Source: Girardia tigrina
Taxonomy: Eukaryota
Direction: 5' to 3'
Length of the DNA stretch: 59,069 bases
NCBI GenBank assembly: GCA_001938485.1
Contig: MQRK01216237.1
Coordinates: forward strand, 1-59,069
Position numbers and translations under genes: made by a program. Of the stretch, positions 1,349 to 46,000 are shown in pieces (within the stretch, counting starts at the first letter, position 1; every line of letters starts with the position of its first letter). The notes below the pieces were generated by a model. The model ran no database searches and was not told the origin of the DNA. It saw only the letters and a list, made by a program, of their open reading frames with translations.

Positions 1349-4300
1349 CTACCAAAAGCATCCTGAATAAAAATTCCACAAAATATTCAATTTACTTGTG
1401 GGATTTTATTTCCTCTAATCCACCGGATCCATTTCCGAGTCTTTCTGCTGAATTAAATTTACACAATGCTTGTATAAAACTAGATGCTCGAAAGGTTATT
1501 CTTCGATTATGAAAAATATCTGTGGCTTCAATTCCTTTAAGAATGAGAGTGTAGATTTTCATCGGATCATTACCGGTAAATGGCGGTCTAAAATTATTCA
1601 ATTTCTGATAACAATATATTATTAACATGATTTTGATACTTAGATCAAATAGTTATATTTCTTCTGTTTACTATGTATAAGTTGTGTTCCAAAAAAGTAA
1701 GTTTGTAATCTGAACTTTTTATCATCTTACTTGCATTACCTATTAAACAAACATTCAGATGGAAAATTTAAGATTAACGCTATTAGAAAATACGGATGAA
1801 AACTGAAAAATTTTGTTATTTAAAGTAAAAACTATGTGAAAAATTTACTGCAATTGTACCTTTATTATTATTTATGTACAACAAGTTAATGTAAGTAACG
1901 AACAAGAAAATCAAATGTGGTTATCACTATCAAAGATTTGCCATAAGTGGAAAAATGTTTAGATGATTGACCGAATCTGAGACATATATGGAGTTAATTA
2001 AATTAATTAATTTTTGTTTTAGTCAAATTTTAAAATGAGTAATTTAATAATAAATAAGCAAATTTATTATTTAATGTGTACATTAAAAATCTGGTTTGCT
2101 TATCAAAGAAATAACTAGAATTTTGTTAATGATTTTGTTAACTATTAATTAATAAAAAATGTTAATTATTTTTTAATGTTTAAAATAAAATTAATTGTTT
2201 TAAAGAAATGCGATAAAGATGAAAATCACACCAATTTTTTAAATATAAATTTATAAAAATCAATTTTTATCTTTTTAACTTAATATGTGAAAAATCGAGC
2301 AGTGGGGTAACCAAACGGGCGAAAGTTTTGGGAAGGAATTTCTGACGAACATTGAGTTGGTCCCCTAGGGGGGGGGATTCTGAATCTGAATCCTACCAAG
2401 GAGATTCAGAACTTCAGTTGAAGAGAATAAATGTATACTACAACGGAGTGATTGAAAAGGAATATGCACATCGAGCAATACTAATTCCACACAGAGAACG
2501 AGAAATGGACTTCGTAAGGGTCAAATATAATGATCGGAAAAATAATCCGGATCACTAATAAGTAGTAACTCAAAGTCGTTTCGCATTATATTTCTGTCAA
2601 TCGAAATTCTCTGCTCGAAGTGTTCATTACTTGATTAATGAAGTGATTCTGTAATTCTTTATTGATGTTTGTTGGGTTCGGGTTCAAAATTTAAGCTCAT
2701 GACACAAAAATTTATTTCTCACATTACCGATTATTTAAATAAATATTTTTTTATTTTGAGGAGCTTAAGCACTTTCTTTTCTTTATACAAACCATTATAA
2801 ATAAAATAAATATAGATTCCGATATTGTTACTTTATTAATTACAAATATTAATTTTATACTCGTCTTTAAAATTATAAAAAATATTTTATTAAAATTTTG
2901 TCAAAGATTTTATTTTATATTTTATTAAATTTCCATTTTACTTTACATTTTAATTTAACCGTTTCTCAATCACATTTCCATTTCGATAAAATCTCATTTT
3001 CTAAAAATAAAATTAAAATCACACCTGTATTTCTATTTTAAATTAAATATTAAGTTTTATATTACCATCAAAAATAAAAATTACTTTATTACTTGATAAA
3101 AAATCTTTATATTTATTAAGAACATTTAAACAAGTCTCATTTGAATCTTTATTGCAATTACATTTAGAGTCATTAACAACTCTCGGAAAGTCTTTCATCA
3201 TTTGCCATCGTTATAATTGGTTTTCTTATTTCTGATTTTAATCATGATTATTCGAACAATTTTTCTAAGTTATTTTTTAAAATATTTAACCTCTAAAAAT
3301 ATTAATTTTTACATATTTTTTAATAAATCCTAAAATAATAAAAATGACATCAAATTATTAAAATCAAAATTTGAAAGCCAATTGAAAACGTAATTTTTTT
3401 TTTTTGAAAAACTAATTTTTTACATTAAATTTGGAAAATCTTATTTTAACATATCTATAACTCTACTTTAAGAAATGTTACGAAATTATTTATTTGATCT
3501 TATTTTAAATTCAAAAATTTTATGAGCTCACCAAACCTCCTAGCAATGTTAAAATTAAGTTTTGATAGGTATTCAGAAATGTTATTAAAAATTTATAAAA
3601 TCAAAATAAAATAAAATATTAAATTTGTTAGTATTTCATGTATTCATGTCGATTGAAGATTTATAAAACAAATTATTTTCTCAAAAAAAGTTTGTTTAAA
3701 TACTAGTGTTAATAATTTTTTTGAAAATTTAATATATTTTTTTCTGGATTTTTTGTCTGAATTAACTTTTAATAATAATTCTGAGGATGTTCTAATACCA
3801 TTTAACAAACACAAATTTACACGCTCAATTTTGTCCACACATCCAACTGCTCACAAAAAGCCCACTAAACCGATTTGATCATTTAAAAAACTAAAATTAA
3901 CTATTTTATTTAATTTAACGTTTGTTTTATAATTTATATTAAATTATTTTTTAATAATATTATTTAATTTAATTACCGTATCTTTATGAAAATAATCTGC
4001 CTAATTTTTCCACGCAAGTGGCAATTAGGATAAATAAAATCACACATTACCCGTTGATTATTATCGTCAACAAAAAATCAAACCACGCTAAAATTTTCAC
4101 AAATTTAAATATTATTTAAATGTAATTTAAATTTCTTTTATTTTTTTTGTTGTCTCAAAACTATTTAATAATTACAAAATTCCCAGAAGTTTTTTTTTCA
4201 CAAAGAATATCGGGATCAATCGACCCAAGAATTTTTCCACGTGAAATTAAATATGTAAATAAAAAAAACGAAAACAATTGTTTTAATGTTTCAACGGAGT

Positions 4301-7300
4301 GTCAATTCGAGTGTCACAAATTCAAACCAATTGAGACATTTTTTTAACCGTGAGCGAACTGCCGAAAAATCATGTAAAATTTATTTTGTGATCAATAAAT
4401 TTTGTATCCGATTCTGTCTTTTCCTTGTTTTTTTGCAAATGGGAACCGCCACGGAAACTCCCACTTCAGTTAGTTTCCCTTATGAGTGATGTGAGGCGTA
4501 GATAAAATCACACATGACCCGCAGCGTGAAAATACGGTTATTATTATTATGTAACTTTTACAAACTATCATCGGCATTTTAAATGTTCAGTCGATCCAAT
4601 TCTTATTTCTTTCCACTTCAGAGCGTGAGTGCAGTATAAGCAGCATATAGAGTAGCCGGCACTTAACTAAATTATATGGCTAAATGACTTCTGATCTATT
4701 GCTTTGCAGCTTTGATAAGAAACTTTAGTAAAAATTCTTGCCTCTCGCCATTTCTCGGATGGCGTAAGTTTTTTCGTGCAATACTGGCTAGCTCTACTAG
4801 TTTTAAATAATATTTATTATAAAAAAGAATCTTGAAAGGCAGAATTCAATGAATCTGTTAGTAAATTAGTTATTATATATGTTAATTCCAAATGTTTGTT
4901 ATTATTTATTTATTTTATTTCAAACCATTGTTATTATATATGTCCTTGACATTCTCTTATGAAGTGTCGAAGTTTCATTTGTATAAAAAATTAAATAATT
5001 TTATTAATTAAGAAATGAGAATTAATTAAACGAGAAAGAAACTTCCTCAATCTTGAGACTTTTGTCTCTGTTTCAACAAATTAGAAAAACATAATTTCCC
5101 CATTATTTTTCAAGCGATAAATGCGATGTTTGACAGTCTGAGAAAATTGTACATTGAAGCATTGTATGAATTTTTCTAAAATGTTCTCATATTAATAAAT
5201 ATTTATATTACATTTCTTTACAATAATTTTATTGAATTAGTCTATTTCGCCTCATCTCAGATATCATATTTCTTACTTGATGGAAAATTTCTTCTAACCC
5301 TCTAAACGTAAATACATTTCTCCAAATATCATTTCAGTGTCTTAAATCAAATTTTTTTCTTTAAAAGATCGAAAGTTTGGATTTTTATAATTTGTGTTTA
5401 CAATAAATAAAAATCAAATTCAGACGACAGAAAATACTCTCCTACAGGAAATATTCAATATTGGGTTTGTGATTAAGATCAAGTTTGATGATTTTAAAAA
5501 TTTATTTCTAACACATATTACATTTTACAATAAAATATACAGAGAAGGATGACATAGTCAAGACATAAAGTTACAGCAAGAAAAAGAAGACACAACAACT
5601 TGAAGAAATTTCGAAATTGGAGATGAAGTGCCAGTCAAGGTGGAAACAGGGATAAACAGTAAAGATAAATATGAAGGACAGTATAAAGTGATATAGAAAA
5701 CAATATGACAGAAGGTATGCACTAATAAATGAAGATGGAAGAATTTTAGATCGAAACGTGGAAAAATTGAGAAAATTCTTAAAGAAGGGGGATATGAAGG
5801 GTTAGTGTAAAGTTTCGATTCGTTGAATAAGTTAATGTTTTAATTTAAAAAATTTTGGTGTTAAAAATGAATACTGATATTGATGTTGCAACCACTTCTC
5901 ACAGTCACTATTCTTAAATATTATCGAAAATTGCTTTTCCAAATGGAAAAGTCATATTTCTCGAAGCAGCTGTAATTCGCCGGATGAAATTTTCGCTTAA
6001 ATAAATCGAGGATTTTACATGATATCGGAAGAAGACTTTATGGGGTTTTATTGTAAAATGTTAAGATATTTGTTCTAATAATTATTTTAAAATAATAAAA
6101 ATTTTAAAATGTTAACAATTTAGTTTGATGTTAACCGATGAAATTTTTGTTCAAAGTTGTTATAGAGACAATTCGAATTGGATTGTCATTTTCATCCTTA
6201 TAGCACCTGAACTGGTACTGAATTAAGAGCCATAATTTTATCATCCTAGAGGTGTACCTGTTAAAAGACAAGATTATTTGCTAAGATATATTAATAATAC
6301 AATAATAAACTAATCATTCTATCTTATATACAAGCACACCTCGATCCGGTTGCATAACTGGATTAGGGAGATCTGCTGGGTTAGCACCACATGATTGACA
6401 CCGCACACTATTACATGCATACATTATATCATCAAACTCTCAATCCTGTTACTCAATTTCATACTTCATAATCACGCATAATTTCCACGTACATCTAATA
6501 ATGATAATAATATATTTATAATAATAATTTCAATAATAATTAACAAACATAATAATAATAATTCACACATCCTTACAGTACCTATCTCACCAATGCTCCC
6601 GATGCTTGCTAAATAGTTAGACAAAATTACAAATTAAAAACATATTTTTTGCGGACACCTTTGTTTTTTAATGTTTTTATTATAAGCTACTTTTTAACAA
6701 AATTAATTTCATTATTTTATGATAGTGATGTTTTTGTGATTAGTAATTTGATGTATTAAATCCGATACATTATATTTTTTAAAATATTTTTTATAAAAAA
6801 AATATAAAACGATACACGGAGAAGTCGAGACTCATACTTACCGAATTATTTCTCATTAGCTAATTAATGTTCTTAAAAAGAAAAAATAATTAAAATAATG
6901 ATGAAAAATAATAAATTATACTTTTGTAAACAGTGTCTATGTCCTTAAAATTGTTCCTTAGGTGGCAAGGAAACATGAGGTTTCCTAACATCAATGAGGA
7001 AGAATAACCATATTTTGTTTAGGTGATTTTTGTGGGGAAACATATGACATTTTTAATGCAAATCGGAACTTAAAATCTCTATTTTTCTTTTTATTGATAA
7101 ATTAAGATTTTGTTATTTAAATTATTCCTCAGAAAAAAGTTTTTAATTGACTTTTAATTTAAGTATTAAAAATTGCATTTAAAAATGTTTTTTAATAGAA
7201 CGAATTTAATTAAAAGCAAATTAAAATTCCATAAAAATGAGAAAAGATTAAATTTCAAACTCAATTACTTGAGGCAGTGGCGAGTCTCTTCAGATGTAAA

Positions 7301-10300
7301 ATTTTAATGTGCATATCAGTGGGCATTATTTTTTATAATTTTTAAAAATTGCTATAAAATTAAATTTAATTAATAAAAAATATATTAATATATTCTCAAA
7401 AATTTCAAAACATTTTTTAAACATTTTAAATAATTAATATAATTTGATACAAAAAATCTTACGTCCCCGTAAGCAGCTCATAGGCAAGTATCCCAATCGA
7501 CCAGTAGTCCGACGTGAAATCGTGACTTTTATTGAGAATTATCTCAGGAGAAACATATTCTGGAGTTCCACAGAATGTCCAAGTACGTTTTCCTATACCG
7601 ATTTTTTTGGCAAATCCGAAATCACACTAAATTATCAGTATAGATAAATTATATAAAAATATATATATAAATATATAAATAAAAACACAAATCGAATTTG
7701 AAAGATTTACAGTTTATTAACTCTTCAACATTAACAAAAAAATACATAATTTTTTTAAATTTCTTTAAACAAAGTACTATTTAATTTTGAAAAAAAGTAA
7801 AAATTAAATTATTGAAATAAATATTTTTATTAACGTTGATTTCATAAATAGAGTTTTCAATCAATTTTTATGTACAAAACAAGACACTCAGAGATAAACC
7901 AGCGAATCACCAGCTTAATAGCTTAGTTCCAAAACGACCTTGATCGGCGTTTCGCCGACTTTGTGTTGCAATGGCTTAATGCAATCGATTCCGATAAATC
8001 GAATTTTTAAACGTGCAAATTGAAAAAAGACATCACAAAAAATAAAATAAGTATGGGAAAAATCGAAAAGTTTCATCAACATATAATTTTTTAACAAATG
8101 AAACCTAGTGCCATTTGATTCCTGACCAAAATGGAGAGTTCTGTCTAAGACGATTTCCTGAGAATAAAACGAAATTAACAGCTCAAATGTCTTTCAGATG
8201 TTTGATAAATATCATATTGGTTAGACGCCACAAGACATTTCAAATTGAGACTTGTCGACATTGATGTTGAGAAGGCCAGTTCAAACTGTGAGGAATATTT
8301 TTGAATGGGGTTTATTGTATGTTATTTGGTATGTTGTTTTAGGATTGTGTTTCGCCCACCCAGATGGAAGATTGATATCTTAAATATTTTAAAACGTCGG
8401 ATTATTTAATCAATTATTAAAATTTAAATAACCAATTTTAACATTAAATTAATATTTCATAAATAATATTTTAATAATAATTTTCTTAAAATAAATAAAA
8501 TTTATTTTTAATTTAAAGTATAAATTATTTTTGTAATAATTAAATTGTAATTTAAATTTGTTCGAATAATAAAACGTTAAAGAATATTATTAAAAATTAT
8601 CAAGAACGATGACGAGCTACGCAAGTTTTACGGAGAATTGTTCTAGTGGCAATTCAAATTATGATGCAAATAAATGTAATGAAAACCCAAATTAATGTTC
8701 TTAATACAAAGCATCAGCAGAAGATTATTCCGTTTTTTCAGACGGAATTACTGTTTCATGGCTCATTCGAGTTTTTCTCCATCAAATCAATGTGAATTGT
8801 CTCAAATAACTTTCACGATTTTGTTATTTGTTTATTTTCTGACTAAACTTTCGTTTCAACCTAATAGTTTTAATTAAAGTCTTGAAATCAAATCCGACGT
8901 AATACTATGGACTAGAAGATGTTTTATGATCATAAATCAATTATAATTGATATGTTGATAATTATCAACATATTAAAATTTATTAATCATTAAATTTAAT
9001 TAGATTATGCAAACATATTTATTCGATTTTGCAACTTTGAACGAGATCTTCATATGGTAATTAAAGAGTATATACACTGATGGAGTCAATGGATGTACCA
9101 CGCTTTTTATAATTTTTTATTTCCAAATGGATTTCTGTAAGATCCTTATTTCATTATTCTTTTTTATGCTTTAAACTAGCATAAGCCTTTTTTGTATTAA
9201 AAATATGTGTTTTTCAAATATATGATTAATACTAGTAAATACGCAATTCATATTCTGTGATTTAAAGAAATTTCTCTTCAAACAATAAGTTTTTTAAAGA
9301 CAATAGTGTGTTTTTTATGTCTATAAGAACATGTTTATGAATAGTTCATAACTTAATCATAATTATACTTGTGAAGAATATTTTAAATTTGGTATGTTGA
9401 GTTTAGTATTTGTAAATGTGTTTCTCCCACCCAGATGGAAAATTGGTATTTTGGATGTTCGCAATGAATAGTTATTCGAGCATAGTTTGCATTTTGAAAT
9501 TCAACATAGGATTTTTAAAAAATTTTTAAAATATTAAATCGTTTAAATTTTAATATCAAATAAAGTAAATAACATTAAACTAATTTTTAAATTGACTTAA
9601 TTAATTGTTTTGTCTTTGTTAGTTTTTAATAAGAATTACACAATAACTTCGTTTCCCAAAAATATATTTACTAATTAAAACAAATACATAAAAAATGCGA
9701 GAATTAATGATGAAATAATTGGAACCACATTTAAATAATTTTATATAAATTAATATTTATTTGAATGATTATAATTTTGAATAATAATTTAATAATACTA
9801 ATATTCTTCCTAACAGTCTTTAAATAAGATCATTTTTACAATAAAATTAATATTTAGATAAAATTATTATCAAAAGTATAAAATTAAAACTTTAAAAATA
9901 AAATCTGATAATAATGAAAATTTGTTCCAATAATTTTTTAATTAAAAACATTAACAATAATTTATTAATTTAACGAAATATCAAATTATTAAAGTTTTTC
10001 TCAGAATTGTTCAAAAGACAATTCAAATTGTGGTGAAAATAAAGTTGTGAAGACCCATATTGATATTCTTAATAATACTTGAAATATTTTATCTTCTTTC
10101 AAATGCGGATAAAAGTCAGATGGTTCCCGTGGTCACATACGTATAGCGAATGCTTCTTAGATTATGAAAGAGTTTATTTTACATTGTTTTACCCACCACA
10201 AACTACAGTGCCAATTGGTTCGTGAGCCCTATACTTTTGAAGTTTCTACAAATCATTAGTAAAGAAAGGATCACAGAAACAAATGAACGTAATTCATTTA

Positions 10301-13300: not shown

Positions 13301-16300
13301 TTACATCTAAATATAGTTGTAAAGAAATATTATATCATCTTACAACTTCACGCTTTGCTTAATTAAAACTAAAATGGTCCATAGTTGGTTAAGTAAGAAA
13401 ATTGTGTTTTGCATAAGGAAGGATGAATTTAAATTGGCGTAAACTATTTTTCGGAACTTTATGTTGCAATTTTTCTATCATAAGCATTCCTGGAGCTGAT
13501 CATAAAAGAAGTTATATAATTAATTTTGATTTTGTTTGAAGAATGAGGACCATGCATGGATGGATTTAAAAAGGAAAATTATTTTATCTGAGTGGTTCGT
13601 AAACATTTAAGCAAGATACTACCAGAAATTGACCAAATTGAGTAACTTGTTATCATTACAATTTTGAAGATTAAACTACTTCCATAAACATCTTTGGTTA
13701 AAGGTATACTTGTACGTTATTGAAATGTACAGCCTCTTAATTGTACTATTTGTTAGGCATCACATTAAAATGATATTCAGTCAAACCTATTTATTTACCA
13801 CGCTCCCAAATTTACCATATTTTTTTGCATATCAGGCTTGTTTAAGATTTAAAAAAATATATTTTTTGTTTTTAACTTTTCCATAAAAAAGTAATATTAG
13901 AGTTTAAAAAAACTTAATAAAAAAATTGAAATAAAAAATAATTACCAAAGATAAATTTGCTTTGGCTCCGTTGTTTAAATGAAACAACAAAAATAAAAAT
14001 GGAATTTAAAAATTTGAATTTGGAATTTTGTGATAAAAATAAAGTTTTTGAAAACTAAATGTTTTCGTTATTTGGAATGATTGATGCCGAGTGGTTCCGT
14101 GGAAAAATCGTGATTGGCGCCAAATATTTCGGCGGACAATCATGATTTTTGCCGTGTGTTTCGACAGACAAATTGCGATTACTGCCGAGCGGTTCGGCGC
14201 GGAAATGCTGTCGGATGGTCCGACACTCGGATTGCTTTCAAGGGAATGGCCTGCTCGCAAAAAGAAACAAGGCTTTTTTAGCAATATATATAATACCTCT
14301 ATTATATTTCAAATCTCTATAATTTACCATTAAAAAAATGTTTTGTGATATAGTAACTTTTTATATTAAATTTAACTACTAAAATTTAATTTGTTTTTAT
14401 TTTTGATAAAATTGTTTAGATATTATTTTTTATAGGTTTCCATAGAGAAGAAGTACAATTTATCTTAATTTATCAACAATTTATATTAATTTTAGAATAC
14501 AAAAAATATTGAAACGTTTTTATTTGACGAACAAATGTCTAAAAATTCAAAAAAATAACTGATTATTTTAAATAAATCTTATTTGGATTTTAAATAAAGA
14601 TTATTTGGATTTCTTCGTCTTTTGTACTCTTATAATATATTATTAAGTTAAAAAATAAAGATGATATTAATTTTTAATAATTGTCCATTTCACAAACTGG
14701 TATATACACCAAAATATATAAAAATTATAATTTACAATTCTATGTATATTACATATCCAATAACTATAAACTCAATAACTACATAACTCAACCAATAACA
14801 TAACCAAACTCTATAATTTATCACCCACTCAAATTTACCACCTTTTTCCAATCCCGGAAATTCTCAATATTTTACCCTTAACTAAAGATTTTAGCTTTCT
14901 GTTTACTGATAAAATCTGACTTTAACTTTCATGATTCCTAAACAAAACTTACACTAAAAAGTATTCTTTCCTTAAATACAAAAACCACTTTGACTGATAC
15001 ATCAGTAAACAGGAAAATATTGTTGTAAGGAAGTTAAATTGTCAAATAACAACTGTAGACTTAACAAATGCGACATCCTTTTCTGTTGCTGAACATTTCA
15101 ATTATTATAGAAAATGTTAACAATTTTTGTAAACTGTTGTATACTTTAAAAAATCTTTTGTACGAACAAAGTTGTAATAACAAATTTTAAAATATTAAAA
15201 ATATTGAAAGCAAATAAATGGCTTTTCTTAAGAACTAAAGCATCAGAAAATTCAAAACCTTTTCTGTGTTAATTAAAGAGAGAGTTTATCGAAAGAAAGA
15301 ACATCTGATTTTTTGTTCATTCCAGAACATTGCAATAGATTGATTGAGATCAACATCCGGATCCCTATGTCAAAATATAGCATCAGAACAGGGAATGTAA
15401 ATTTATGGAACTAAACTTCACAATAGGTCTTGTTTTATAATCGAATTTTATTATCTCACCAAAATTTTTGTTACAAGTTATAGTGGTCTAAATTCATATT
15501 TGCTTAGATTTTTAAATGTAATTTTCTTTTTGTCTCTATCTCTAACTGTTTTCTGTATATGAACAATCTTCATGTTTGCTTATACGATTCGGAGGTCAAT
15601 GGGGCGGCTATAGAACTCCGAAGTTATTTATTCTGTATAACCCAGAAAAGAGTCGACCATTGAAAATTACGTGACCATGCTTTTACTAAAATCCGATGAA
15701 TCATTATAAAAAATTACAAGTTATCTTTTCGTTTATTGATTTAGTTTTCCTGGGTTATTTTTATTCGTCATTTAAATTTAAATATTAATCTTTTTTTCAA
15801 TATTAACAATTAACACCAATATACCAAACAATCAATTATTTAGAAAAATGGTAATTATTAAACAAATATTTGTTCAAATTTACTTTATCTTAATGGTTAA
15901 ATAAATTTTGCAAATTTTAATTTCTAATAATAAAAAAAATAAAAATAATAATAATAATAATAATAATAGTAAGAAAATCAGTCATCTGCAATAAAATTTA
16001 TTAAATAATTCAAAAATGTGACAAGCAATTAAATAATCAAATTATTATTAAAAGAACGTTTTATCTAACTTCCATCTCCATTAGAATTTAGGATGCGCTT
16101 CAACCATTCAATTCTTCTTGGTTTTGGATTTCCTGGAAAATCAATCAAGACTTGATGTGGACTTAGAAATTCAAGAATTTGAAAAGGACCATCATATCTG
16201 TTNNNNNNNNNNNNNNNNNNNNNNNNNNNNNNNNNNNNNNNNNNNNNNNNNNCGATCTGAAAATCTCTATGGCCTCTTCTGCTTGCTTCTAAGTTTCGAA

Positions 16301-19300
16301 GTTTGTCTGCCGCCTTTCCTGATTCAAATTTTGTTTTCAAAATTATTCTCTCATGATCAGTACTGCTTGATGGTGGTAACCCATGTAAAATAACTTTCCT
16401 CTCAAACACAATTTAAAACGGTGAAAGTTTAGTTGAGCTCTGATATGTTGCGTTTATTGAAAACTCTATTTTTGGAATCATCTTCTCCCACGCTATTTTT
16501 TCTTTCTTATTCTTCAAAGATGTAATCAACATATCTCGTACAGTTCGAATGGCTCGCTCTGCTAATCCATTTGCTTGATGTTGATACGGAGAAGTAAATT
16601 CTTGTTTAATTCCAATTTTTTCTGTTAGTTTCCTTAAAATAGATCCTTCAAATACTCGGCCTCGGTCTGACAATGTAGATTTAGGCTTCCAAAACTTGTA
16701 AAGCCAGTGATCTTTTATAGCTTCTGCAACACTCAATTCATCTTGTTTGTTCAAAGGTACAAGACTCACTAGTTTGCTGAAAAGGTCTATCATCACAAGT
16801 AAATATTTGTATCTGGATTTGAATTCTGAGAAGTATGCTAAATCAATTATCATTTGTTCCAGCAGCCCAAAATCTTCTCGTGGTATCAATAACTCTTTTG
16901 CGCACCCAGAATATGTTTTCTTTTTGCACAGATTTCACATCTCTGTACCATGAGTTCGATAGTTTTACTCATGTTTGGCCAATAATAGCTTTCCTGAATA
17001 TATTCAACTAACTTTTTGCTTCCCAGATGACACAACTCCTCGTGAATATACTGGGTTAACTTCTCTGCATAATTTTCTGGGACTAATATCTGTAGTAAAA
17101 TACATTTATAATATCTGTAAATACAGTATAAACTCCTTAACCGCCAGCAATTCTTTTCTAGTTACACAATAACCTTTTTTGTGGTCATTTATAGTTCTAG
17201 ATGCAAATGCAATTATTTTCTCGTTCCCAATATTATCATTTTGACTCAAAACTGCGCCGATAGCTCTAAAGCTTGCATCCGTGTCTAAAATCATTGTTTT
17301 CTTCATACCCGGATATGCTAATATTGGAGCTGTTCCCATTCACTCTTCAACTTATTAAAACTCGTCTCGCAATCTTCCGTCCAGTGATTTCTTTTCTCTT
17401 TTTCACTCAGGATAGCATACAATGGTGCGTTAATTAATGCGTAATCTTTAATGAACCGCCGATAATAGTTTGCTAACTCTAATAATGACCTCAGCTATGT
17501 AATACATCCTGGGCTTGGAGCTTGCATAATCTTTTTGATTTTATCATCGTTCGTTTCAACGCCCTTGTTGCTGATTGTGTGTCCAAAAAACTTAAGTCTT
17601 CTGGTTCCAAAAACACATTTATCTGGGTTTGTCATCAAACCAGATTTCCTAATTATTGTAAACACTTGTTCTAATATACTTAAATGGTCTTCCTCATTCT
17701 TAGCATAAATTAATATATCATCTAAATATACAATAACTCCTTTATAAAGCAAATCCTTAAACAATAAATTCATAAGGCTCTGGAAAGTTGCTGGAGCTGT
17801 GCATAATCCAAACGGTAAGCGATTGAAACAAAATTGACCGATTTTAGTACTAAAAGCTGTTTTTAATTTTGATGCTTTATCCAGGTCCACCTGATAGTAC
17901 GTTTGGCCTAAATCAATGGACGAAAAAAATTACTGACCCCCCTAAAGTATCCAACAATGTGTAGATATCCGGCACAGGAAATGTAAATTTCTCCGTAACA
18001 TTATTCAGTCGTCTAAAATCTAAGCACATTCTGATGGATTCATCTTTTTTCGGTACAATAACCAGAGGAGAATTCCAAGGACTCTTACATGACTTAATAA
18101 TATTAGCTTTTAATAGATCAACAATTCAAAAATGTGACAAGCAATTACATAATCAAATAATTATTAAAACAACGTTTTATCTAACTATAATAATAGCATT
18201 AATAATAATAATAAATCTCAAAATTATTTCAAACATTTTTATAATTTAAAAAAATAAGAAAAAACATTGTGTAATAAATGAAAATTAATTTTATAATTTC
18301 AAAAATTTATAAAATATTTTTTTCAAGAAAAAACAAATATTTTCTAACCAAAAACATAAAACTTATTTAATTTTTATTTTTTAAAAAATAAAACAAAAAA
18401 TAGTTTTCATAAGAATATATTACCGGTATATAATTATTCGATCATTAAATTTTGCAAATAATATTAAAAAAACTCATTTTTTATAAAAATTTAGAAAATT
18501 TATTTTTTCTTTTATGTAACGGAAATTGTTTTTTTTACAAATTTTGAGTCAAATAAATTAAGATTGAAAATATTTAGAAAACTTTATAATAAAGTTTTTT
18601 CAAATTATTTTTGAAAGTCTTTTTTGTTGGTTTTGGTTGCAACTTATTGATAAAATAATATGCCTAATATACCGATTTTCTTAATTCAAATTTATAAATT
18701 TTCTTTCAAATTCTGATCTTGGTTTTTAATTTTTTTATCTATTTTTAATAGTGTTTCTACAAGGTGCAGACTGAAATCTTCGCCTCAGTGTAAAGACAGA
18801 TTTTAACCAAGGGCCACATCACTCAGATAACCTTCATCAGTCTCTCCTACAAAGGATTAAAAAATAATTTTTGATAGTTTTATAATACTTTTTAGATTAT
18901 TTTTTTTCAGATTTCTACGGGTAAATTTTGTTAGACTCTCGTAAATATAAATAATAATTATAAGTAGAGAGATTTTGCAAATGCCTGTGCATGATTGGGG
19001 GCACTCACGGCCCAACGGCTAAAATGAAAAAGAAGAAGCAACACATTCTATCAGTTCTGAAAATTTTAAAGTTCGGTTTAGTGTTTGACTACACTTGGCT
19101 TTTTTATAATAAATATTGTACAGAAATAATTTCGTACATTTGCCATTATTCAGGAAAGGTTGCGTATTCTTAGAGATACAAAATAAAAATTATGGAAATA
19201 AAGTAATAGAATTAAAACAGCGGTTATTTATACCTCAACAAAATAAATTTGAATCGGTCGTCCATAACAAATGAAAATGTCTTCGTGAATGTTTTTTAGA

Positions 19301-21863: not shown

Positions 21864-21927
<64 letters not shown>

Positions 21928-24900: not shown

Positions 24901-27900
24901 CTTCGAAATCAACGTGACCAGTACCGAATGACAGACCTAAACTAATTTATCCCTGTAGTGAATTAAAAAAAAATCAAATCAAAATATTTTTTTTAAATAA
25001 CAAAAAAACGATTAAAAAATAAAATTGTGAACGTAGTGATCGAAATGTAAAAATAAAAATTCGAGCGAAAAAAAATTAGCAAATTATATCAAAAAATACA
25101 CTTGTTTAAATAAGCTCAATATTTACAAAACTCGAACTACATAATCAAAAAAAAACAGTTAAACTCTAATCATGTCCGACTGTGAAACCGAGACATTCGC
25201 CTTTCTGGCCGAAATCGCCCAGTTGATGAGTCTAATCATCAACACTTTCTACTCTAACAAAGAGATTTTCCTTCGGGGATTGATCTCCAATTCCAGCGAT
25301 GCGCTTGACGAAATCCGTTACAAAAGCTTGACGGATCAATCCGTGTCCGTCACCGCAAAAGACCCAATGATCAAAATCATCCCGGACCAAGATGCTGACA
25401 CTCTCACTCTCATCGACACAGGAATCGGCATGACGAAAGCCGAGCTCATCTACAATCTTGGAACGATCGCTAGATCTGGAACCATAGCATTTATGGAGGC
25501 GCCGCAAGCCGGTGCCGACATCTCGATGATCGGTCAATTCGGTGTCGGTTTCTACCCACCGTATCAGGTCGCCGACAAAGTTCAAGTGATTTCCAAGGGC
25601 AACGACGGCGAGCGGCATCTGTGGGAACCATCCGCGGGCGTTTCGTCCACCGTCAAATTCGACAACAGCGACCCGATCGTCCGAGGAACGAAAGACATTT
25701 TATGCATGAAAGAAGACCAAATCGAATATCTAGAAGAACGGAAAACCAAATACGATGGGCCTTTTGGGCGTGATGGTTGCCCCTCTGTTCGAAAATCCGC
25801 CATCCCAACTCGGTTGGTTGAACGATTCGCCTCGTCGCTTTTTTTCCTTTTACATTCAGGAACGTGTTATCGAGCGAGAGAATAGTTGCCCGTTCTCCGA
25901 CGGCCACAGAGAGCTGGACTATCTTCTCGCATCAATGTGGGAACAGACGGAAGTTCCGCGCTCGAGGCGTGCTTCCGCCAACGTCGATCCGACAACGGGG
26001 TCATCGCCTCATCTTACCGCGATCGCCGCTCGAAGCCTCACGTCGGTGTCTGGAGCAACTGCCTCATTGAACTTTTCAATCCCAGCGATATATTTATGTA
26101 ATCACTGGGATATATCTTTAAGATAAATAGTTAGATCTAATTCCAAAATGAAAACATTATGTTTTTTAATTTTAGAATCTTTATTAGATGTTATTAAACT
26201 TGTTTTATAGTAAACTTCACAGGGATGTAAAAAACATTTGTTCAAAGTTTGGTTACAATCAGTGTAATAGTTTCTAAGTATATTTGAGACATCACATATA
26301 CCTACATATTCACATATGATGATGGTACAAAGATTTTGCAACTTTTAGGTTGTTAATGAAGTCAATTTGATCAAAATAAGCATCATTAGAATCAGTTAAT
26401 CTTTCCCAACGAGTCACAAACGATGTATTCCATCAGTAAAAATTTTGGTGATTGGGATTCAATGAAGTCGACGAATTCTCATTTTGCTTCGTTCTGATTG
26501 GTGAAGATCTTACCATGGATAAAGTTATCAAGATACTTGAAAAAATAATAATTCGTTAGTGAAAGGTCTGGAAAGCATGATGGATGAAGGAGAAGCTCAA
26601 TCTCTAAAATGTAAAATTTTTGTACAATGTTCCGTAAAATGTGTGATCTGTCGGTGTCCTGCAAGATGATTTGGACTCTCCAATTATGTTTACATAATTT
26701 TTTAAAACATATTATTAATTTTGAGACACTATCACTCTGCTGTAATAATTTGACCCGTTTCAAAAAAGTTTTAAGAGATATTACCTCCCACAGATCACCA
26801 TACTGTATATAATAATTGTGAGGAATGTTTTGAATTGTGTGTTGATATTGTGCATGTTGTATGTTGATTCGAATTGTGCCTCTCCTACACAGATGGATGA
26901 TTGGTATTTTCTTTGATTCCTACTAATTAAAAATAATTTAATTTAATTTTAAAGTAAAAAGATTTAAAATAATTTTTGAATGTATTACTTAATTTTTAAT
27001 CTAATTTAAAATTTTAATATATTAATTTAATATGTACTTTTTAAAAAATGTTTAGATTTAATTTTAACCAATTAGATTCTTTATAATTAATAATTTTTAT
27101 TAAAAGATTTTTATTTATTGAAAATAATTAGTATGAATCCAGAAATATATTGATCAAGAAAAATGTCAAATAGTGAATGCGCTTGTGATATTAATAAATG
27201 TTGTAAAACTCATTTGGATGTTGTTAATAATAATATCGAACAAACCATGTATATAATAAAAAAATGAAAAAAATAAGTGACTTGACTATAAATAAAATGA
27301 TTGAATTATCATTAGCATATAATGATCGAGAACTCAACTATGTGATTAAAATAAGTATTTAAACATATGTTATAGTCTGAGACCAATCGACTTCAACCAG
27401 GACTCTCATTTCTTTATCCTGGATTACTGCAGGTCAATCGGAACGTAGTGCATCTTCAAGACCAAAATATGTGGAACAAAATTATTGGAGCTAACATAAC
27501 ACGGTGGTTTTGTTGACACTTATTTTGGTTGCTTTGAGCCTTTGGAAATAGTTTTTGGGGCTCGTCTTTGTCCCGCAACTGGCCAGAACGCTCCACGTTA
27601 TCGTACAGAATCCTCTTTTAATTACAGCTAACAATGCGGTCTAAAAACTTGATAACTAATATTCACTCCAATGGCAACATGACCTGTACCGAATTAAAGA
27701 CCACTATTCTTGCGGAAAATTAGTAAAGAAGAAACTTAAAAACGTGAAATTTTTGATGATCTTCCAAGATCGTGAGGAATTCATTTTTCAATATTAGTCA
27801 AATTCTCAGTTATATTCGAAGCATCTTCAACTACATGGCGACAAACATTAAGTTTTCTTCCGCGATACTATGAACTGTCTGAGACCAATCGGTTTCAACC

Positions 27901-30900
27901 AGAACTCTCATTAATTTATCCTGGATTACTGTAAGTCAATCGGAACGTGGTGCATCTTCAAGTCCAAAATATGCGGAACAAAATTATTGGAGCCAACATA
28001 TCACGGTGGTTTTGTTGACACTATTAACGTCACAAACAGTGTTAATTTTGAGCTGTCTCCGGTGTGCTTTGACTATCTTGAACTCAAAAGAAAATAGTCA
28101 AAATCGATCCTGTAATATGTGAGAATTACATGCAAAAATGTATGAATAAAAGTGCTATAAAAAGTATTTTAAAATTATTATTTAATGAATATTTTATTCA
28201 GAAAAATACGACAAAAAGTGCACATATCAAAAGATGCAAAACTTTCATGTCAACCCAATAAATTTGTGTATATATTTAAAAAATGAAAAAAATTTTTAGG
28301 GAAGAATGACGATATCTAAAAATAAAGTCCGAAGAATATTAAATTAAAGACAGAGGACGTCTTATTTCCCAAAGGAATCGGTAGAATTAATTTATTATGC
28401 ATTCCTCACAATTTTTATATGCTTTTAGTGAAAAAAGAATTATTTGATAAAAAGTTGAAATGCATGAAACACTTGTTGCGTTCAGAGTCAATTATTTATT
28501 TTTTCTAACAGAAAAATTATTTGGATAAAAAATTGGTTCAATTTAATTTTTTTATGGTTGTGAGGAATATTTTTAAGTGATGTTTATTGTATGTTGTTTT
28601 TAGGATTGTGTTTCTCCCACCCAGATGGAAGATTGATGTTTTAAATGTTTCTAACCGTGGGATTCTTCGGACAATTTAAAAATGTAATTAACAACTGTAA
28701 AATTAAATTAACATATTTTAATCATAAACAATATATTTAAAATAAATTTATATATTTTTGAAAATAAATTTACATTATTTAGTAATTTAAATTTGTTCCA
28801 ATAATTAGAGGTTCAGAAATAGAATTTAAATTTATCAATCGAGAACGATGTATAGCTAAGATCGTTTTGTGGAGAATTTTCCAGGAGGCAATTAACAGAA
28901 AGATATTATTTTAAAATTATTATTTTATAAGAAAAATGCATTAATCTAATAAGGAAATCATTTCTCAAAGATTTAGAAAAAAACAATTCAATATTATTTT
29001 TTTATTAAATTGAAACAAAATAGTGTTCTACAACTTTCGTCTTTCCTTCAAGGAGCTACTGGAGTTCGAAATACTTCTGAAAAACGTTATAGAAATCTTC
29101 GTAAGAGTTCAGTGTGTGTTAGGAGCATATCAACAGATTAACAGACTTACATTTCTACAAGCAATAGCATATTTGTCGTATTCATAAAATAAAGTTTTTA
29201 TATTAAAACTTTTATATAAAGTATTTATTCATTCTGTGAGAGGTGGTTGCAACATCGATATTCGAGTTCATTTTTTTAACACCACAATTTATTTATATAA
29301 CAATTCACATTTTAAAACAAATTTTCCTGTTAATTTAATTATCTCGACCCAAATTAATCTATTAAATTTTTTTCGATTCAATTTTTAAAATCCTGAAAAT
29401 TTATTTCAAAAATTATTTAAAATTGCTTATTAAAAATATTTTATTTATAAATAAATATTTAATATTTTATAGTTTTCTTAACTTTTTTAATTTTAAGATA
29501 TATTTAGATACATTTTTAGATACATTAAAAGATATTTTTTATTTTGAAGTAGATATTTATTTTTTTATGCTTTTCTTTTATAATATCATTTTTAATTTTT
29601 TAAAATATTTAAAAACACATTTTTAAAAACGTTTTTGATTTTTTAATAGTTGTTTTATTATGTCATTTTTAATTTTAAAATATTGAATAAGCATATTAAC
29701 ATTAAAATATTTTACCCCTTTAAATTAAAAAAATAATAAATTATTCTGGCGAGATAAAAATTTAAATTAACCCCTCATATCCCCCTTCTTTAAGAATTTT
29801 CTCAATTTTTCCACGTTTCGATCTAAAATTCTTCTATCTTCATTTATTAGTTTATACCTTCTGTCGTGTGTTTTCTCTACCACTTTATATTTATCTTCAT
29901 ATTATTATTTACCTTCATATTTATCTTTACTCTTTATCCCCGTTTCCACTTTGACTAGTACTTCATCTCCAATTTCGAAATGTCTTCTGGTTGTTGTGTT
30001 TTCTTTTTCTTGCTGTAACTTTATGTCTTGACTATGCCATCTTTCTCTGTATATTTTCTTACCGAATATAATTTCTGCTGGGCTCTTCCCTATTGTTTTC
30101 TGAAAAGTTACGTTTAATGTGAATTCTATTTCCGGTAGTAGTTCCTCCCAGTCTGATCCTTTCTTTGTATGTAACGATGCGTTTAAATATTCTCTAATCG
30201 TCCGAAATTGTCTTTCTACTATTCCATGATGGAATAGTGTTATGATGGTACGGACTTGAGTAACACATTTTTATATTCATTGATTCTGCCATGTCTTTGA
30301 TTACCTTCGATTCGAATGTCTTCCCACAATCTGTATGTATTTCCTTCGGTGCTCCAAATCTCAAGATCCATGTGTTCATTATGGGGTCTTTTATGGTTAT
30401 TTCATCCTGATTGCTAATGGCTGTCAAAGATATGTACCTACTAAACTGTCTTTGCAACAATATGATTGATTGCAACAATATACTTTTTTCTTCTCCAAGT
30501 CTCCTTTAGTGGTCCACATATGTCTATGCACGCTTTCTCAAATGGTTCATTTGCGACCAGTGTCACCCGTTTTTCCTTCATAGCGGTCGTTAATGTTTTA
30601 CTTTTTTGGCATGCTTCACATTGTCCAATTACTTCTTCTATTATTTCATTCCGATTGATCATGTCATAATTTTCTGAGATGTATTTCGTTACTTTCTCTG
30701 CGCCCGCGTGCGACAATAGCTTATGTATTTGTATGATCATTTCTTCTCTTTTTGACTTTCGTATCCAAATCTTCCCCATGTTTGTTTTTATCATACCGTC
30801 TTCAATCGTAAGCTTACTATCTTTACCTGAACTTGGGTCTCTTTTAATTTCTTCTATTTCTTCTTGTTGATATTTGAATATCTGCGATGTGTCCAGCACG

Positions 30901-31234
30901 TTGATTCTTCGAGTCTTTATCTTCATTATTTTAGCATCTTCATGATCCATCAAACATTGTGTACATGTATCATAATCCAATTAATGTACTTAATAATTGT
31001 TTCCTTTCTTTGTTTTCTGTTTGTGATAAATATAATAAAATAATTTAATTTGAATTTCTTATATATTTAAGTGATTTTTCGTATGATTATTAGACAAAAT
31101 TATAAACTTATGGTAGATCAAAGGAAGATCAATCGGTCCTATTATTTTTACGAATGATCAAAACGAGAATAATTTGGAATATGAATATGAATAATTTGGA
31201 AAATATATATATTCATATAAATATTTTTATATTC

Positions 31235-31265
<31 letters not shown>

Positions 31266-33881: not shown

Positions 33882-33912
<31 letters not shown>

Positions 33913-33962
33913 NNNNNNNNNNNNNNNNNNNNNNNNNNNNNNNNNNNNNNNNNNNNNNNNNN

Positions 33963-34012
<50 letters not shown>

Positions 34013-40000: not shown

Positions 40001-43000
40001 GTTTTAGAAACAAAGTTATTTTCATGATCCTAGATCATAAATAACAAACCTATTGGAAATGTTAAGGGGGATTAGTAAACTTCTTCACTTATTGATTTAT
40101 GTGAAGATGATTCTCGGTATCAGAAAAGGAATATGTGGTTCTCATATCTAACGGCTACTAACCTTGTTTTGTTAGAAGAATAAACTTTATTAGAAACTTA
40201 GTTCTACTTAAATGGGCTTCCAAGACTACCAAGACCTTGGAAGGATGTCTTAATAAACTGAGAATTTCTTCCTTCTTATGTATATCCTCAAAGCATATTT
40301 CTAAATGATGAGCACAGTAACTTGTTAATAGTGCGGTTATATTTTCGATTTATAAATCCAGGAAACTCACAATAATAATTTATTCTAATAATATACACAA
40401 TCTTCCAATATTTAAACAACTCTATTTTTATTATCTCACAGGAGTATCTGTGATTTTTTTTGTATTTGATTCGAGACATTATTGTTCGTAAATTTAAATT
40501 TTTTTCCTAAATTTTATAAAAAATAATTATAGTATCGGAAGAGGTTTACATTTTGAAGTGTCGGAAGTTTAATTTGCATAAAAATCGCTTTCCTTAAAGT
40601 AAAAATTAGTGTTAATTCATTTATCTTACAATTCTTATTTAATAAACCTTTAACAATATACATTCTAAGACCTATCTTGAAACAAATAAATAAAAGTGGC
40701 CCTTAAGTAACAATATTACTTATTCAAACTTGATTTGATTATTAATATAAATGACATTTAGCGATTCCTATGTATATTTATATATATAGTATTATTAATC
40801 TTGACCGATAAGTCTCAGAAGAAACAAATCTCATTATAAAATCAATTTTCTCCTACAGTCTTTTGCAAGTCTTATCTCAATTCTTATCTCAATCGCGTTA
40901 CTAAATAATTATAATATTTCAAAAAATAAAAAAATTCCCTTGTTATTTTTCTTGAATTTATAAATAATAAATTTTAAAATTTTAAATAATTTCCTTTCGA
41001 AATGCGACTCACAATTAATTGACTTGGGTTCACTGAATGATTCTATAATGGATGAAGGTTGATCTTAAATTAAGTTAGTCAAGATAACTGTTAAGAGCAC
41101 CGACCCAATTACTAAGCAAACATTTATTCATATCCCATTTAGAGTCATCACAACTCTCGGAAGTTCTTTCACCATTTATCATCATTTTAATTAGTGTAGT
41201 TGCTGCATTTTTAATAATGACTATTCGAACAAATTTCCTGATAGGATTTATTATTTTAACTATAAAATATTTCATAAAATGAAAAAAAAATAATTAAACT
41301 AAATTTAAAATTATTCAAACCTCTAAAATGTCTATAATTAAAACATGAAACATGGTTTTTTTTTAATTTTCGAAAAATTTTACTTATATTAGAAATTATC
41401 CCATATTATTACTTTTTAAATTTAGATTTTTTCAGATTATTAATTTTTCATTAATTTTAAAAATGTTAATTCTTTGTGAATGATCAATTATTGCAAATAT
41501 AATAAGACACCAATTTTCCAATTCCAATTTAAGCATACTCAAATAAACACAGTACTTCTATACACAATTTGAAATTTTCCTCACAATAACTTTGCAATAG
41601 ATTGGAGAAAGACTTTTTGTAATTAAAGAACTTTCTTGGTATTATTTTATTTTTCATTCGTAATGATGATAATATATTATGTTTAGTACACATTGTATAC
41701 TGATGATATGATTGGCAAAGAATATTTACAAAAAATGATTATGGAATAAATTAAAGTAAAATTCAAATTTTAAATTTGAGTGTGATGAAACAACCTATAA
41801 GCAAATAATAATTGTGATTGGATAGTAATATAATATAGTCATGTTTTGTTATTAAGCTTTGTATGTGATGATAACATTAATTTTTATTATATTCTCTTTT
41901 TAAATTATCATGTAATTCATTATCAAAACACAGTAAATATTTGTAACTACGTAAGAAAATTCGATTCCTTTGACAAATTCACAATTTATTTCATTTATCT
42001 TATTTATTTGTCTTATCAAAAAACAAAGATCATTTATTTGAAATTTTATTTGCACTCAAAATTCAATTTTCTATTCGCACAAATTAGGTTTGACAATGAC
42101 AATTTCAAAACACTTTTTTTACCAATTGAATAATTTCTCTTTTTAATAGAAAAATATTTTTAATTCAAAATTGAACCTTGTTCAAAATATATTATTACAC
42201 ACATTTTTTTCATTTTTATACTAACGATTTTTGTAATTTTGATAAAGTCACATTTATATTTTCACACACCAGCAATCAAATGTCATTTTTTGACAATCAA
42301 ACACACATACACGCAATCATATTCACACATACACACCAATTCAAAAAAAAGATATCACGTATTGGTTAATTAAAAAAACAAAGAAAACCACGTGATTATC
42401 ACTCACTTTAAACCAAACAATTCGAAACTAAAACTCAATTATTGAGAAACTCAACCATAGAAAAAAGCCAAATTATTTACTTTTTACTTATTTATTTAGT
42501 AATTTTTTAAATATGTTTAAACTTATTTAATTTTTATTGAAAGTTATTTTAACTTATTTATTTTTTTAATTTATTTATATTATCTTTCCCAAACTGGCAA
42601 AATATTCGGTCAAACCATGAATTAATTTCCGCTCCAGTGCTTTTAAGGTATGTGATACACATAACATTTAAATGTCGTGAAAAACTTGACTCAGGTATAA
42701 AGAGTGTAAAAAACTATTTACAAATGTATTGTAAATCAAATAAAATAAAGAATTCTAAAGAATATATTCTAATCATAAAATTGGCGGTCTTAATAAGTAT
42801 GATTCTTTCATCAAATTCAATAGTTGTTTCCCTCTGTAATTCAAAATCTATTTCTGGTCTGAATTTCAGTATAATAAACTAAAAAAATTTCCAATACTTT
42901 AATTGATATCACAACTCGAATTGTCTTTAGGGCAACTCGCTACAAAACTTTAGTAGCTCGACATTGATTTTGATTAATAATTTATTTGTATTCTATTTAT

Positions 43001-46000
43001 AAATCTCTAATTATTGGAACAAATTTAAATTAAAATTCCTCGCTTAAATAATTTTAAATTATTTTCAAAAATATTTTTAATTTATTTTAAATATATTATT
43101 CACGATTACATAAATCTTTAAGTTATAATCCAATATTAAAATATTTTAAGTCACTTTCAAATAGATTTAAAATATTTTGATTAAAATATTATTATATATT
43201 TGTTGATTAAAATATATTAATTTAATTTTAAAGTTGTTATGTACATTTTAAAATTTTCTAATTAATCCGACGGTTCAAAATATTTGAAATATCAATCTTC
43301 CTTCTGGATGGAAAAACATAATCCTAAAAACAAAATACCAACCACAACATACAATAAACACCATTCATAAATCTTCCTCGCAGGGGAATTTTATTTTTAC
43401 CGGATTTATAGATAGCTTCAGTTTAAATTTGCCGGAATTCCAGCTCGTTTGGATTGTTGAGAATTATTAAGTCCAAATGAATAGAAGAACATGGCATTTG
43501 AGGAAGTGAATTAAAGAAACACTGTAGTAGTGATACTCCTATAATCTCGAAAAAGATTAGAATGTCTTCGACATTCAGATCTATTTTCATTCTTTTTACA
43601 ATTTTAATTTTATTTTTCCTAAAACTCAATTCAAACAGTGAATGTTATGCCATCAAAGATTTGCTATGTTATTCTTTTCATTAAATTATTTTTTCAATTG
43701 AAAATTTGTGACAAAATAAATAATAGATTTTATGATATCCTAAAAAAATATTTAATAAAAAATATTATAAAATATAATTTTCTAGTAATATTAGAAAAAA
43801 ATTATATTTCCTCTGTTACGAGGAGATGGTAAAGAAAAACGATTTTACAGTCTTTAGCTAAAATTATTTTTTATCAGAAAAAAGACTCAAAAATATAATT
43901 CCATCTCAGAATTAATTGTGAAATGTACGCACGAGAATCTTGCAGAAAAGATTGTAAATTCGAAAACAAAACACATTTTAGAATAAAAACAGAAGAAAGA
44001 TTTTACAAATCTCTTATAATACAAAAAAATAAACTAAATTGTTTTTTTGATATTTTGCTATTTATTTTTGTTTCTAGTAAATAACTGTCGAAAAAGATTT
44101 TATTTTATGTGATTTTTTTATATAAACACAAATTTATATATTAATTATATAAATAAAAGGCATTTTGTTCATTAAAATTGTAAAGTTACTGTAAAAGAAC
44201 GAAGTCTGAAACAGAGTCTTTGCAACGCAGACTGAGACCGATGAATTTTATTAATGTTTTACAAATATTTTTTAGACAATTATTAATTTTACTGTCATAA
44301 TTAATTTGTTGATAACTTTAAAGACTTCTTTTATACTTTCTTGTTGTCTTTTACGTCGTTTCTTCATAGATGAAACAAGACGAATCCCAATATGAGGAAG
44401 TATGGAATAAATATTTTTCAAAATTGTTATATTATATCCTAATATTTTAAAGAGAATAAAATACGCGGTGCGTTCAAGAAGTACCCGACTTAAGGTAACA
44501 AAAATGTAATAGCAAATTTTATTTTTTTTGTGTGAATAAACAAATTAATATAAGTTTTTATTTCAGTAATTATTTTATTTTATCAAACGCATTAAACTTT
44601 TATTGCGATATTTTGAATTTTCGTCGGCTCGATGATTACAGACCCCGAATATCACGGCATTATCAAGTTTTTTGTGTTGCAAAAGAAGACATGAAGTGAA
44701 ATTTAATATCTTTTGCATTTAACTTACCTGCATAATTCCCCATCTCTGTCAACTGTAAAATATTGGCCAGAGAATTTAAAGGTAGCATATTCGTTTTTGA
44801 TGAAGAAAATCAGGTCGGCCACAAGAAAAGTTTTACACAGTTTATGTAAAATTACAGATATTTATGTAGTTTATATATGGGGAAATATATGTAGTACAAT
44901 ATTAATTGAATTTAGTATTCTCATTTCCTCAAATAAACTTTTCATCAACTGCTTTTTGAATCATACGCAATCCATATACAAACATCTGAAGCGATGAATA
45001 ATTAACTTTCAATTCTCAACTCAGTTTTAGATGAACGGCTTCCACAAAATTATTGGTCTTAGATTCATTATTTATAATTCTTTAATAGCAATACTCAATT
45101 GCATGGGAGAAATTAAGCTGGCAGCGTGTATTATTATGTTGCATAATTATTGTATAATACTCTTCTGAAAAAGTTGTAAACTCGCTAAATATGGCCCCTG
45201 TTTTACCTTCAGATTACACCTTCATTTTCTACTTTAGGTTTTCTATTTCAAACTAAATGGAATTAGAATCGTTGTACACTTGCATTAAGAATAACATAAG
45301 AAAATACATTTATCACTGTAACCTCAAAGTTTAATGATATCTCATTAGGACGAAAATTAGGCCAAAATTTTATTATCGTTTGAATTATTCGAGCTCTTGA
45401 ATTATTGCTCTTGCTTATTTAGTAGAAGAGCGTATAAAGTCGGTGATTATTCCGTGGGTTGTTGGAAAACTATAGTAATTTTATTCTCATCATGGGAGAG
45501 GGCAAAGGCGGATATTCCGTCTGTGAGAAGTGGTTGCAACATCGATATCCGAATTCATTTTTTACACCAAAATTTTATTTCTATAACAACAATTCACATA
45601 TTTAATACAATTTTTCTGTTAATTTAATTATCTCACCACAAATTAATCTATAAAATTCTTTTCGATTCAATTTTTAAAATCTTGCAAATTTATTTATTAC
45701 ATTTCACATTAAAACCAAAAATTTATTTTAAAATTTATTTAAAATTGCTTAATACTTCAATTAAAATATATAAATTGTTATGACAATAAAAATATTTTTA
45801 TTTATAAATAACTATTTAATATTAAATGGTTTTCTTACCATTTTTAATTTTAAGATATTTAATAGATACATTAAAAAGATATTTTTTATTTTTAAATAGA
45901 TGTTTAAATTTTTTATGATTTTCTTTTATTATATCATTTTTAATTTTTTAAAATATTTAAAAAACACATTAAAAACATATTTTATTTTTAAATACGTATT

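Follow-up and report, generated by a model that had tools for sequence, protein, structure and literature searches.

Introduction

The formation of solo long terminal repeats (LTRs) and target duplications of 4-6 bp are standard for LTR retrotransposons (10.1101/137141), and a poly(A) signal and an integrase end belong to the general features of an LTR (PMC3601003). Here we report on repeats of this kind in a 59,069-nucleotide stretch of Girardia tigrina DNA (assembly GCA_001938485.1, contig MQRK01216237.1, positions 1 to 59,069; "the window" hereafter), in which an initial annotation had noticed a dispersed gene-like module with a short ATG-initiated frame. Our analysis leaves hardly any doubt that the modules are solo or truncated LTRs of one small Ty3/Gypsy lineage without env.

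Several described elements can be compared with this lineage. Exceptions to TG...CA ends are in print, namely Spoink and the Zam group. Spoink, a Drosophila Ty3/gypsy element of the mdg3 group, has TG...TA ends and a primer site directly after its LTR (PMC10965091). It resembles the present element in these two features, in size (~5.2 kb, LTR 349 bp), in the absence of env and in the order reverse transcriptase (RT) - RNase H (RH) - integrase (IN); compared by description, it differs in having 4-bp duplications and one gag-pol polyprotein, against 5-bp duplications and a separately called Gag here; its description, as far as consulted, mentions no gag start within the LTR. In Ty1 of Saccharomyces cerevisiae the RNA starts at base 241 of the 334-bp LTR, the 5' untranslated region (UTR) has 53 bases, the 5' LTR contains the Gag AUG, and the primer site is part of the GAG frame (PMC5454406). 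Ty1 is, however, a Ty1/copia element primed by initiator tRNA-Met, whereas ours is a Gypsy element with a tRNA-Arg primer site and, where LTR and primer site meet, a second in-frame ATG (the junction ATG). Ty3 of S. cerevisiae (PDB 4ol8, 7q5b) provides the closest solved RT/RNase H (E 3e-67) and shares the pol order; the present element has two CCHC motifs and TG...TA ends, and the closeness is that of a best structure match. A terminal change carried through a whole high-copy family is known from TARE1, with TA...CA ends (PMC3701649), and TGTA is among the plant non-canonical LTR motifs of LTR_retriever (10.1101/137141). Those cases come from plants and are mostly Copia, whereas within the present animal Gypsy lineage subfamily F ends in CA and subfamilies A, B, C and E in TA, the variable C/T being the third base of an Asn codon in the ATG frame. 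Burro of Schmidtea is likewise a retroelement of an AT-rich animal genome but exceeds 30 kb, against ~5 kb here (PMC11410931), and single open reading frames have been described for microsporidian Gypsy groups (PMC4202319). Our literature search, which had partial coverage and took in neither supplements nor RepBase or Dfam, returned no description of this Gypsy family or of such an LTR leader in Gypsy. The biology is ordinary: this is an unnamed member of Ty3/Gypsy whose TG...TA ends and Gag start inside the LTR have precedents in Spoink and Ty1. Judged from its sequence, translation of the LTR-encoded leader is the reading we favour.

Results and discussion

The window is AT-rich, animal-type DNA with transposon relics throughout, and the LTR lineage makes up ~5% of it. 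TGTGAGGAA matches at 8287, 26817 and 28559 on the forward strand and at 41585 on the minus strand, and self-BLAST joined seven copies (A-G) at 68-79% identity. Three nhmmer profiles, built on real genomic copies, recovered the same seven, and the reversed window, run as a control, gave zero matches with any of them. Copies A, B, C and F are whole, the 3' end is missing from D and E, and G is without its 5' end. The features are as follows (profile matches in brackets).

3114..3347, minus strand: copy G, 3' part of an LTR with terminal TA (3347-3119); its frame is like the N-terminus of the public Gag P0122 and is frameshifted here
8287..8706, plus strand: copy A, whole solo LTR of 420 bp, TG...TA (8288-8705); duplication CAAAC/CAAAG with one mismatch; R/U5 frame frameshifted
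9370..10074, plus strand: copy B, whole solo LTR of subfamily B, TG...TA (9371-9504 and 9992-10073); duplication ATACT; nested LTR inside; stops in the frame
9617..9815, minus strand: nested solo LTR of 199 bp, TG...CA, duplication AAGAC, from a sister Gypsy family that is young; the junction ATG is not preceded by an open frame
26817..27229, plus strand: copy C, whole solo LTR of 413 bp, TG...TA (26818-27228); duplication ATAAT; between two halves of a mariner relic
27163..27228, plus strand: open ATG frame, 22 codons, in the final part of LTR C; in frame with gag in copies that bear a primer site
28559..28893, plus strand: copy D, LTR without its 3' end (28560-28893)
41089..41585, minus strand: copy F, whole solo LTR of 497 bp, TG...CA (41585-41089); duplication GTTAT
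41090..41185, minus strand: open ATG frame, 32 codons, in the final part of LTR F
42888..43382, minus strand: copy E, LTR without ~20 bases of its 3' end (43381-42888)

Copy B owes its length to the 199-bp sister-family LTR nested inside it. Of the seven to eight copies claimed initially, seven stand. The eighth, near 14450-14830, was rejected: it has no profile match at E<0.01 and belongs to another repeat without these termini. The stretch 14440-14840 (minus strand) is a member of that separate dispersed repeat, for which 361 candidates, 86-94% identical, were found. A further TGTGAGGAA at 28410 (minus strand) was also rejected as a copy, the module being absent after it. The claim that copy C sits inside an interrupted mariner was correct; it lies between the two mariner halves together with ~290 bp of other DNA. 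Beside it, a direct repeat of 146 bp (92%) surrounds mariner-like sequence (27375-28022). Of the ATG frames, which the initial annotation took to be present in most copies, only those of C and F are open in the window, A and G being frameshifted and B, D and E interrupted by stops; the stretch is nevertheless real and, over five subfamilies, frame-conserved.

Genome-wide copies carry the identification as LTRs. A search with copy A gave 3554 candidates, and each of the 40 that were scored covers roughly the same 420 bases with 93-100% identity; queries of types C, F, E and B gave 1096, 2964, 3488 and 767, all of these totals being first-look numbers and not copy numbers. Members of subfamily B were found with the 3' part of copy B as query, the full-length query having returned the nested 199-bp LTR. 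The genomic copies start with TGTGAGG and end in TTAATA or TTAACA, and measured between both ends and the target duplications the LTR is 413-540 bp long. Terminal TA is found in 25/30 loci of type A and 27/30 of type C, terminal CA (TTAACA) in 15 of 17 non-redundant F copies. The CA terminus anticipated by the initial annotation exists in subfamily F, while A, B, C and E end in TA; typical TG...CA termini are replaced by TA-ended ones in types A and C, and TG...CA was not treated as defining. The target duplications it had proposed to look for were found: from 30 loci taken per type, after duplicates, partial matches and copies bearing a primer site or purine tract had been dropped, exact 5-bp duplications flank 13/20 A, 21/24 C and 4/14 F solo-type copies, far above the 0.3-1.1% of shifted controls.

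Some genomic copies adjoin TGGCGACC on their 3' side and others GAGGGG(G)A on their 5' side. The primer site TGGCGACCA, directly after 5' LTRs, is a 9-11-nucleotide complement of the host tRNA-Arg(ACG) end, the added CCA included. Host tRNA-Arg(ACG) gene ends complementary to it gave 22 pattern matches against 0 in the control, and ARAGORN called tRNA-Arg in two of six loci (five genes, three of them ACG). The purine tract GAGGGG(G)A stands directly before the LTR in 7/30 A loci, assembly duplicates among them. Integrase-mediated insertion followed by LTR-LTR recombination would leave the solo LTRs that are seen.

Matched LTR pairs were present in three of 21 stretches downstream of 5' LTRs, with a Kimura two-parameter distance of 0.037-0.044 (~4% apart).

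L086 (G000:C72743): two-LTR copy of 5692 bp, duplication AACGT
L069: two-LTR copy of 4084 bp, internally deleted, duplication CTTGC
L032: LTR pair with the 3' LTR cut

Near the pol end of L086 (element bases ~4576-5229) lies an insert of ~655 bp with inverted ends of at least 23 bp and TA flanks. Subtracting it leaves an element of ~5.0 kb, so that the size is about 5.0-5.7 kb, with an LTR of 421 bp. The linked gag-pol and primer site sought by the initial annotation thus exist: between paired LTRs the order is gag (two CCHC) - protease - RT - RH - IN. Pfam matches comprise RVT_1, RT_RNaseH, Integrase_H2C2, rve and a weak zf-CCHC, and PF17917, PF17919 and PF17921 speak for RT/RNase H of the Ty3/Gypsy type; protease was assigned by an LLDTGA motif and by homologue annotations. 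Integrase follows RNase H, and the Ty1/copia- or Gmr1-type order with integrase before RT was not encountered. The integrase frame extends to the purine tract, which leaves no space for env. Named Pol homologues are of the 17.6/297/412 type (40-46%), closer ones (up to 94%) being without names. Gag was called as a separate protein of 370-397 amino acids; two CCHC motifs can be seen in it, their Pfam scores lying just below the cut-off, and a putative capsid part has Retrotrans_gag look-alikes in the Atlas at 0.92-0.93. Stops or frameshifts occur in every copy whose frames were read.

Reading frames reach into both ends of the LTR. In four of the five A-type 3' LTRs in which the pol frame was anchored (a further two were unanchored), this frame passes the purine tract and ends at a TGA in LTR bases 3-5, and the conserved TGTGAGG start may be due in part to this stop. 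In the sole C-type 3' LTR copy the stop comes later; in the sister family it is a TAG at LTR bases 4-6 in 7/7 anchored copies (two unanchored).

At the other end, the primer site follows immediately upon the LTR in 28 of 30 gag loci, and in 26 of these 28 the junction ATG, formed by the last A of the LTR and the TG of the primer site, opens gag. In the same frame there is an upstream ATG, at a distance of 32 codons in A, B, E and F and of 22 codons in C. The frame that it begins occupies the last 66-96 LTR bases and is stop-free through the primer site into gag. The upstream ATG is exactly placed in 32/52 A, 13/20 B, 4/10 E, 23/29 C and 5/17 F copies, and the gag frame is open over at least 20 codons in 107 of 128 (44/52 A, 16/20 B, 9/10 E, 25/29 C, 13/17 F). 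We consider it probable that the frame is translated as a loosely constrained N-terminal Gag leader of 22-32 residues. Under such a scenario transcription would start ~150-160 bases before the LTR end, near a conserved TTTGTTC block at about -150 and, in subfamily A only, a TATAAA at -190. With a start there, scanning ribosomes would meet the upstream AUG first, and selection would hold it in frame and stop-free while residues drift.

The rival that survives best accepts the same LTR but leaves its "peptide" untranslated: Gag would start at the junction ATG, and the open frame would be a by-product of RNA and DNA signals (R region, AATAAA, integrase end) and of shared ancestry. We regard this as somewhat improbable, yet several observations weigh against translation of the leader, though not against the LTR identity. 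Leader identity is 10-17/32 where that of gag is 94-122/150. Differences between subfamilies A and B are spread over the leader's codon positions (0.28/0.34/0.32) with no third-position excess, even after removal of the AATAAA and end codons; gag, by contrast, gives ~0.2/0.17/0.4. The ratio of nonsynonymous to synonymous substitution rates (dN/dS), which the initial annotation had suggested for the short frame, is 0.43-0.69, no lower than in the shifted frame-1 control (0.41-0.49), and for A/B/E versus C it is 0.94-1.86 (comparisons with F, out of register owing to indels, were disregarded). A second frame is often open too (38/52 A, 24/29 C, 13/17 F). In the young sister family with the 199-bp LTR gag begins at the junction ATG and the leader is absent, so the junction ATG can suffice. 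The bases at -3 and +4 of the junction ATG are A and G, and 3 of 61 listed public proteins were called from the junction Met. Gene callers prefer the longest frame, and public start sites are therefore not independent evidence. The Gag model is poor (predicted local distance difference test score 44.8), and a fold search with it gave sub-threshold Arc-capsid matches, the best at E 0.11.

Part of the leader's conservation has other causes. An AATAAA lies 36 bases from the LTR end, in frame as "NK", in 45/52 A, 16/20 B, 22/29 C and 5/10 E copies, and 39 bases from the end in 11/17 F copies; it would act as the poly(A) signal, and the terminal "VLN" would reflect the integrase end. In favour of the leader, the upstream ATG stands at a homologous place in five subfamilies. 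All three subfamily-level indels within the frame (-30, -6, +3) are multiples of three, whereas several just upstream are not. About 6% of single-base changes in the leader would create a stop, and none is fixed. Among public Gag homologues the junction is included in six of seven and the leader in all six of those, and the leader is present in 42 of the 46 junction-bearing members of a cluster (61 listed). Gags with the same kind of leader are 58-94% identical, and even in those of 58-70% identity a Met stands 31-32 residues before the junction. Regarding expression, 13 sequencing runs held matches, all as contigs and only two of them recorded as RNA; one RNA-run contig covers L086 451-1374 across the LTR/primer-site/gag junction, contigs giving neither starts nor strand.

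A bolder version of the translated leader would have two Gag forms made by leaky scanning, a long one with a Cys/His-rich leader of 22-32 residues from R/U5 of the LTR and a shorter form initiated at the junction AUG. On this view the leader would perform its own function, be it metal binding, anchoring in lipid or the targeting of particles, and an intact solo LTR would be a promoter-plus-start-codon unit reading into host DNA. We think this doubtful, and any function for the leader's 2-4 cysteines is speculation.

The initial annotation had offered two readings of its own, a mobilised 5'-UTR/first-exon cassette of a lineage-specific gene family and the end of a long LTR from a possibly giant Gypsy element. 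The first, by which the modules would be promoter and first-exon cassettes mobilised from an amplified host gene family and would comprise a GT-AG intron and code for a short peptide of the secreted type, is extremely improbable. The open frame and a TTTAG in 21/25 A-type and 8/8 E-type copies agree with it, but this putative acceptor occurs in only 1/30 C-type and 0/17 F-type copies. The GT-rich segment read as a GT...TTTTAG intron is in fact a block at the LTR's 5' end, ahead of the inferred promoter, and no GT..AG was seen among 15 joints listed of 22 in contigs of four public runs, which alone is weak evidence. The ATG frame continues into gag; in solo LTRs it has no stop of its own and reads into unrelated flank; target duplications, primer site and purine tract are all present. 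The linked gag-pol already refutes a host cassette.

The long LTR of a giant, Burro-like Gypsy element (>30 kb) has equally little in its favour beyond the TG start, the AT-rich genome and the Gypsy pol. It is refuted for these subfamilies by LTR ends and duplications 413-540 bases apart and by the mere 5692 bp of the two-LTR L086, its ~655-bp DNA-transposon insert included. The suspicion of an LTR was sound; its supposed length and giant parent were not. An element of the DNA type with TG...CA/TA ends (Ginger-like or a miniature inverted-repeat transposable element), suggested by short imperfect inverted ends and a target duplication, can be dismissed with near certainty: the module flanks RT-bearing DNA in direct orientation, is accompanied by primer site and purine tract, and shows no long inverted repeats.

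In practice, a very abundant repeat that mimics a small gene is an annotation hazard. It ends in TA rather than CA and could therefore escape searches that require TG...CA. At one end of the LTR a single stretch of DNA doubles as poly(A) signal, integrase end and apparent start of a protein, while the opposite end supplies the pol stop. Gag biology would gain a small addition should the leader prove to be translated and functional.

Neighbouring elements and inserts

The sister family with the 199-bp LTR is a young neighbour: most of 40 scored matches are 94-100% identical, and a primer site or purine tract accompanies many of the loci retrieved for it. TA...CA ends mark a further Gypsy LTR family, represented at 45522-46135 (minus strand, duplication GACGG), 29235-29779 (minus strand) and ~5800-5904 (plus strand), so that TG...TA, TG...CA and TA...CA families occur together in the window. 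Its copy at 29235 follows a purine tract downstream of an integrase relic (29905-30980), and a further Gypsy relic with RT, RNase H and integrase lies at ~16065-18761 (minus strand; 33-54% protein identity to the solo-LTR lineage). Both pol relics were rejected as the parent because they are only 33-58% identical at the protein level and the one at 29905-30980 has another LTR.

Several gene pieces lie in or near element copies. In L076 (G000:C247078) an insert of ~1.15 kb (1707-2852 in element orientation) holds an uninterrupted Longin/Synaptobrevin gene piece, presumably SEC22-like, whose frame continues into element sequence; by eye, a similar head is seen in the window near 42636 (minus strand). 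L074 (G000:C232290) has at 5555-6094 (element orientation), near an element copy, a chimeric frame with a piece that we take to be cyclophilin-like, and L036 has at 1363-3309 on the opposite strand, also near an element copy, an intronless frame of 649 amino acids, which we assume to be BTB/kelch-like. In the window itself, 25163-25885 (plus strand) is a GC-rich, uninterrupted HSP90-like N-terminal fragment (PF13589 just below the cut-off) that looks like a retrocopy or captured piece.

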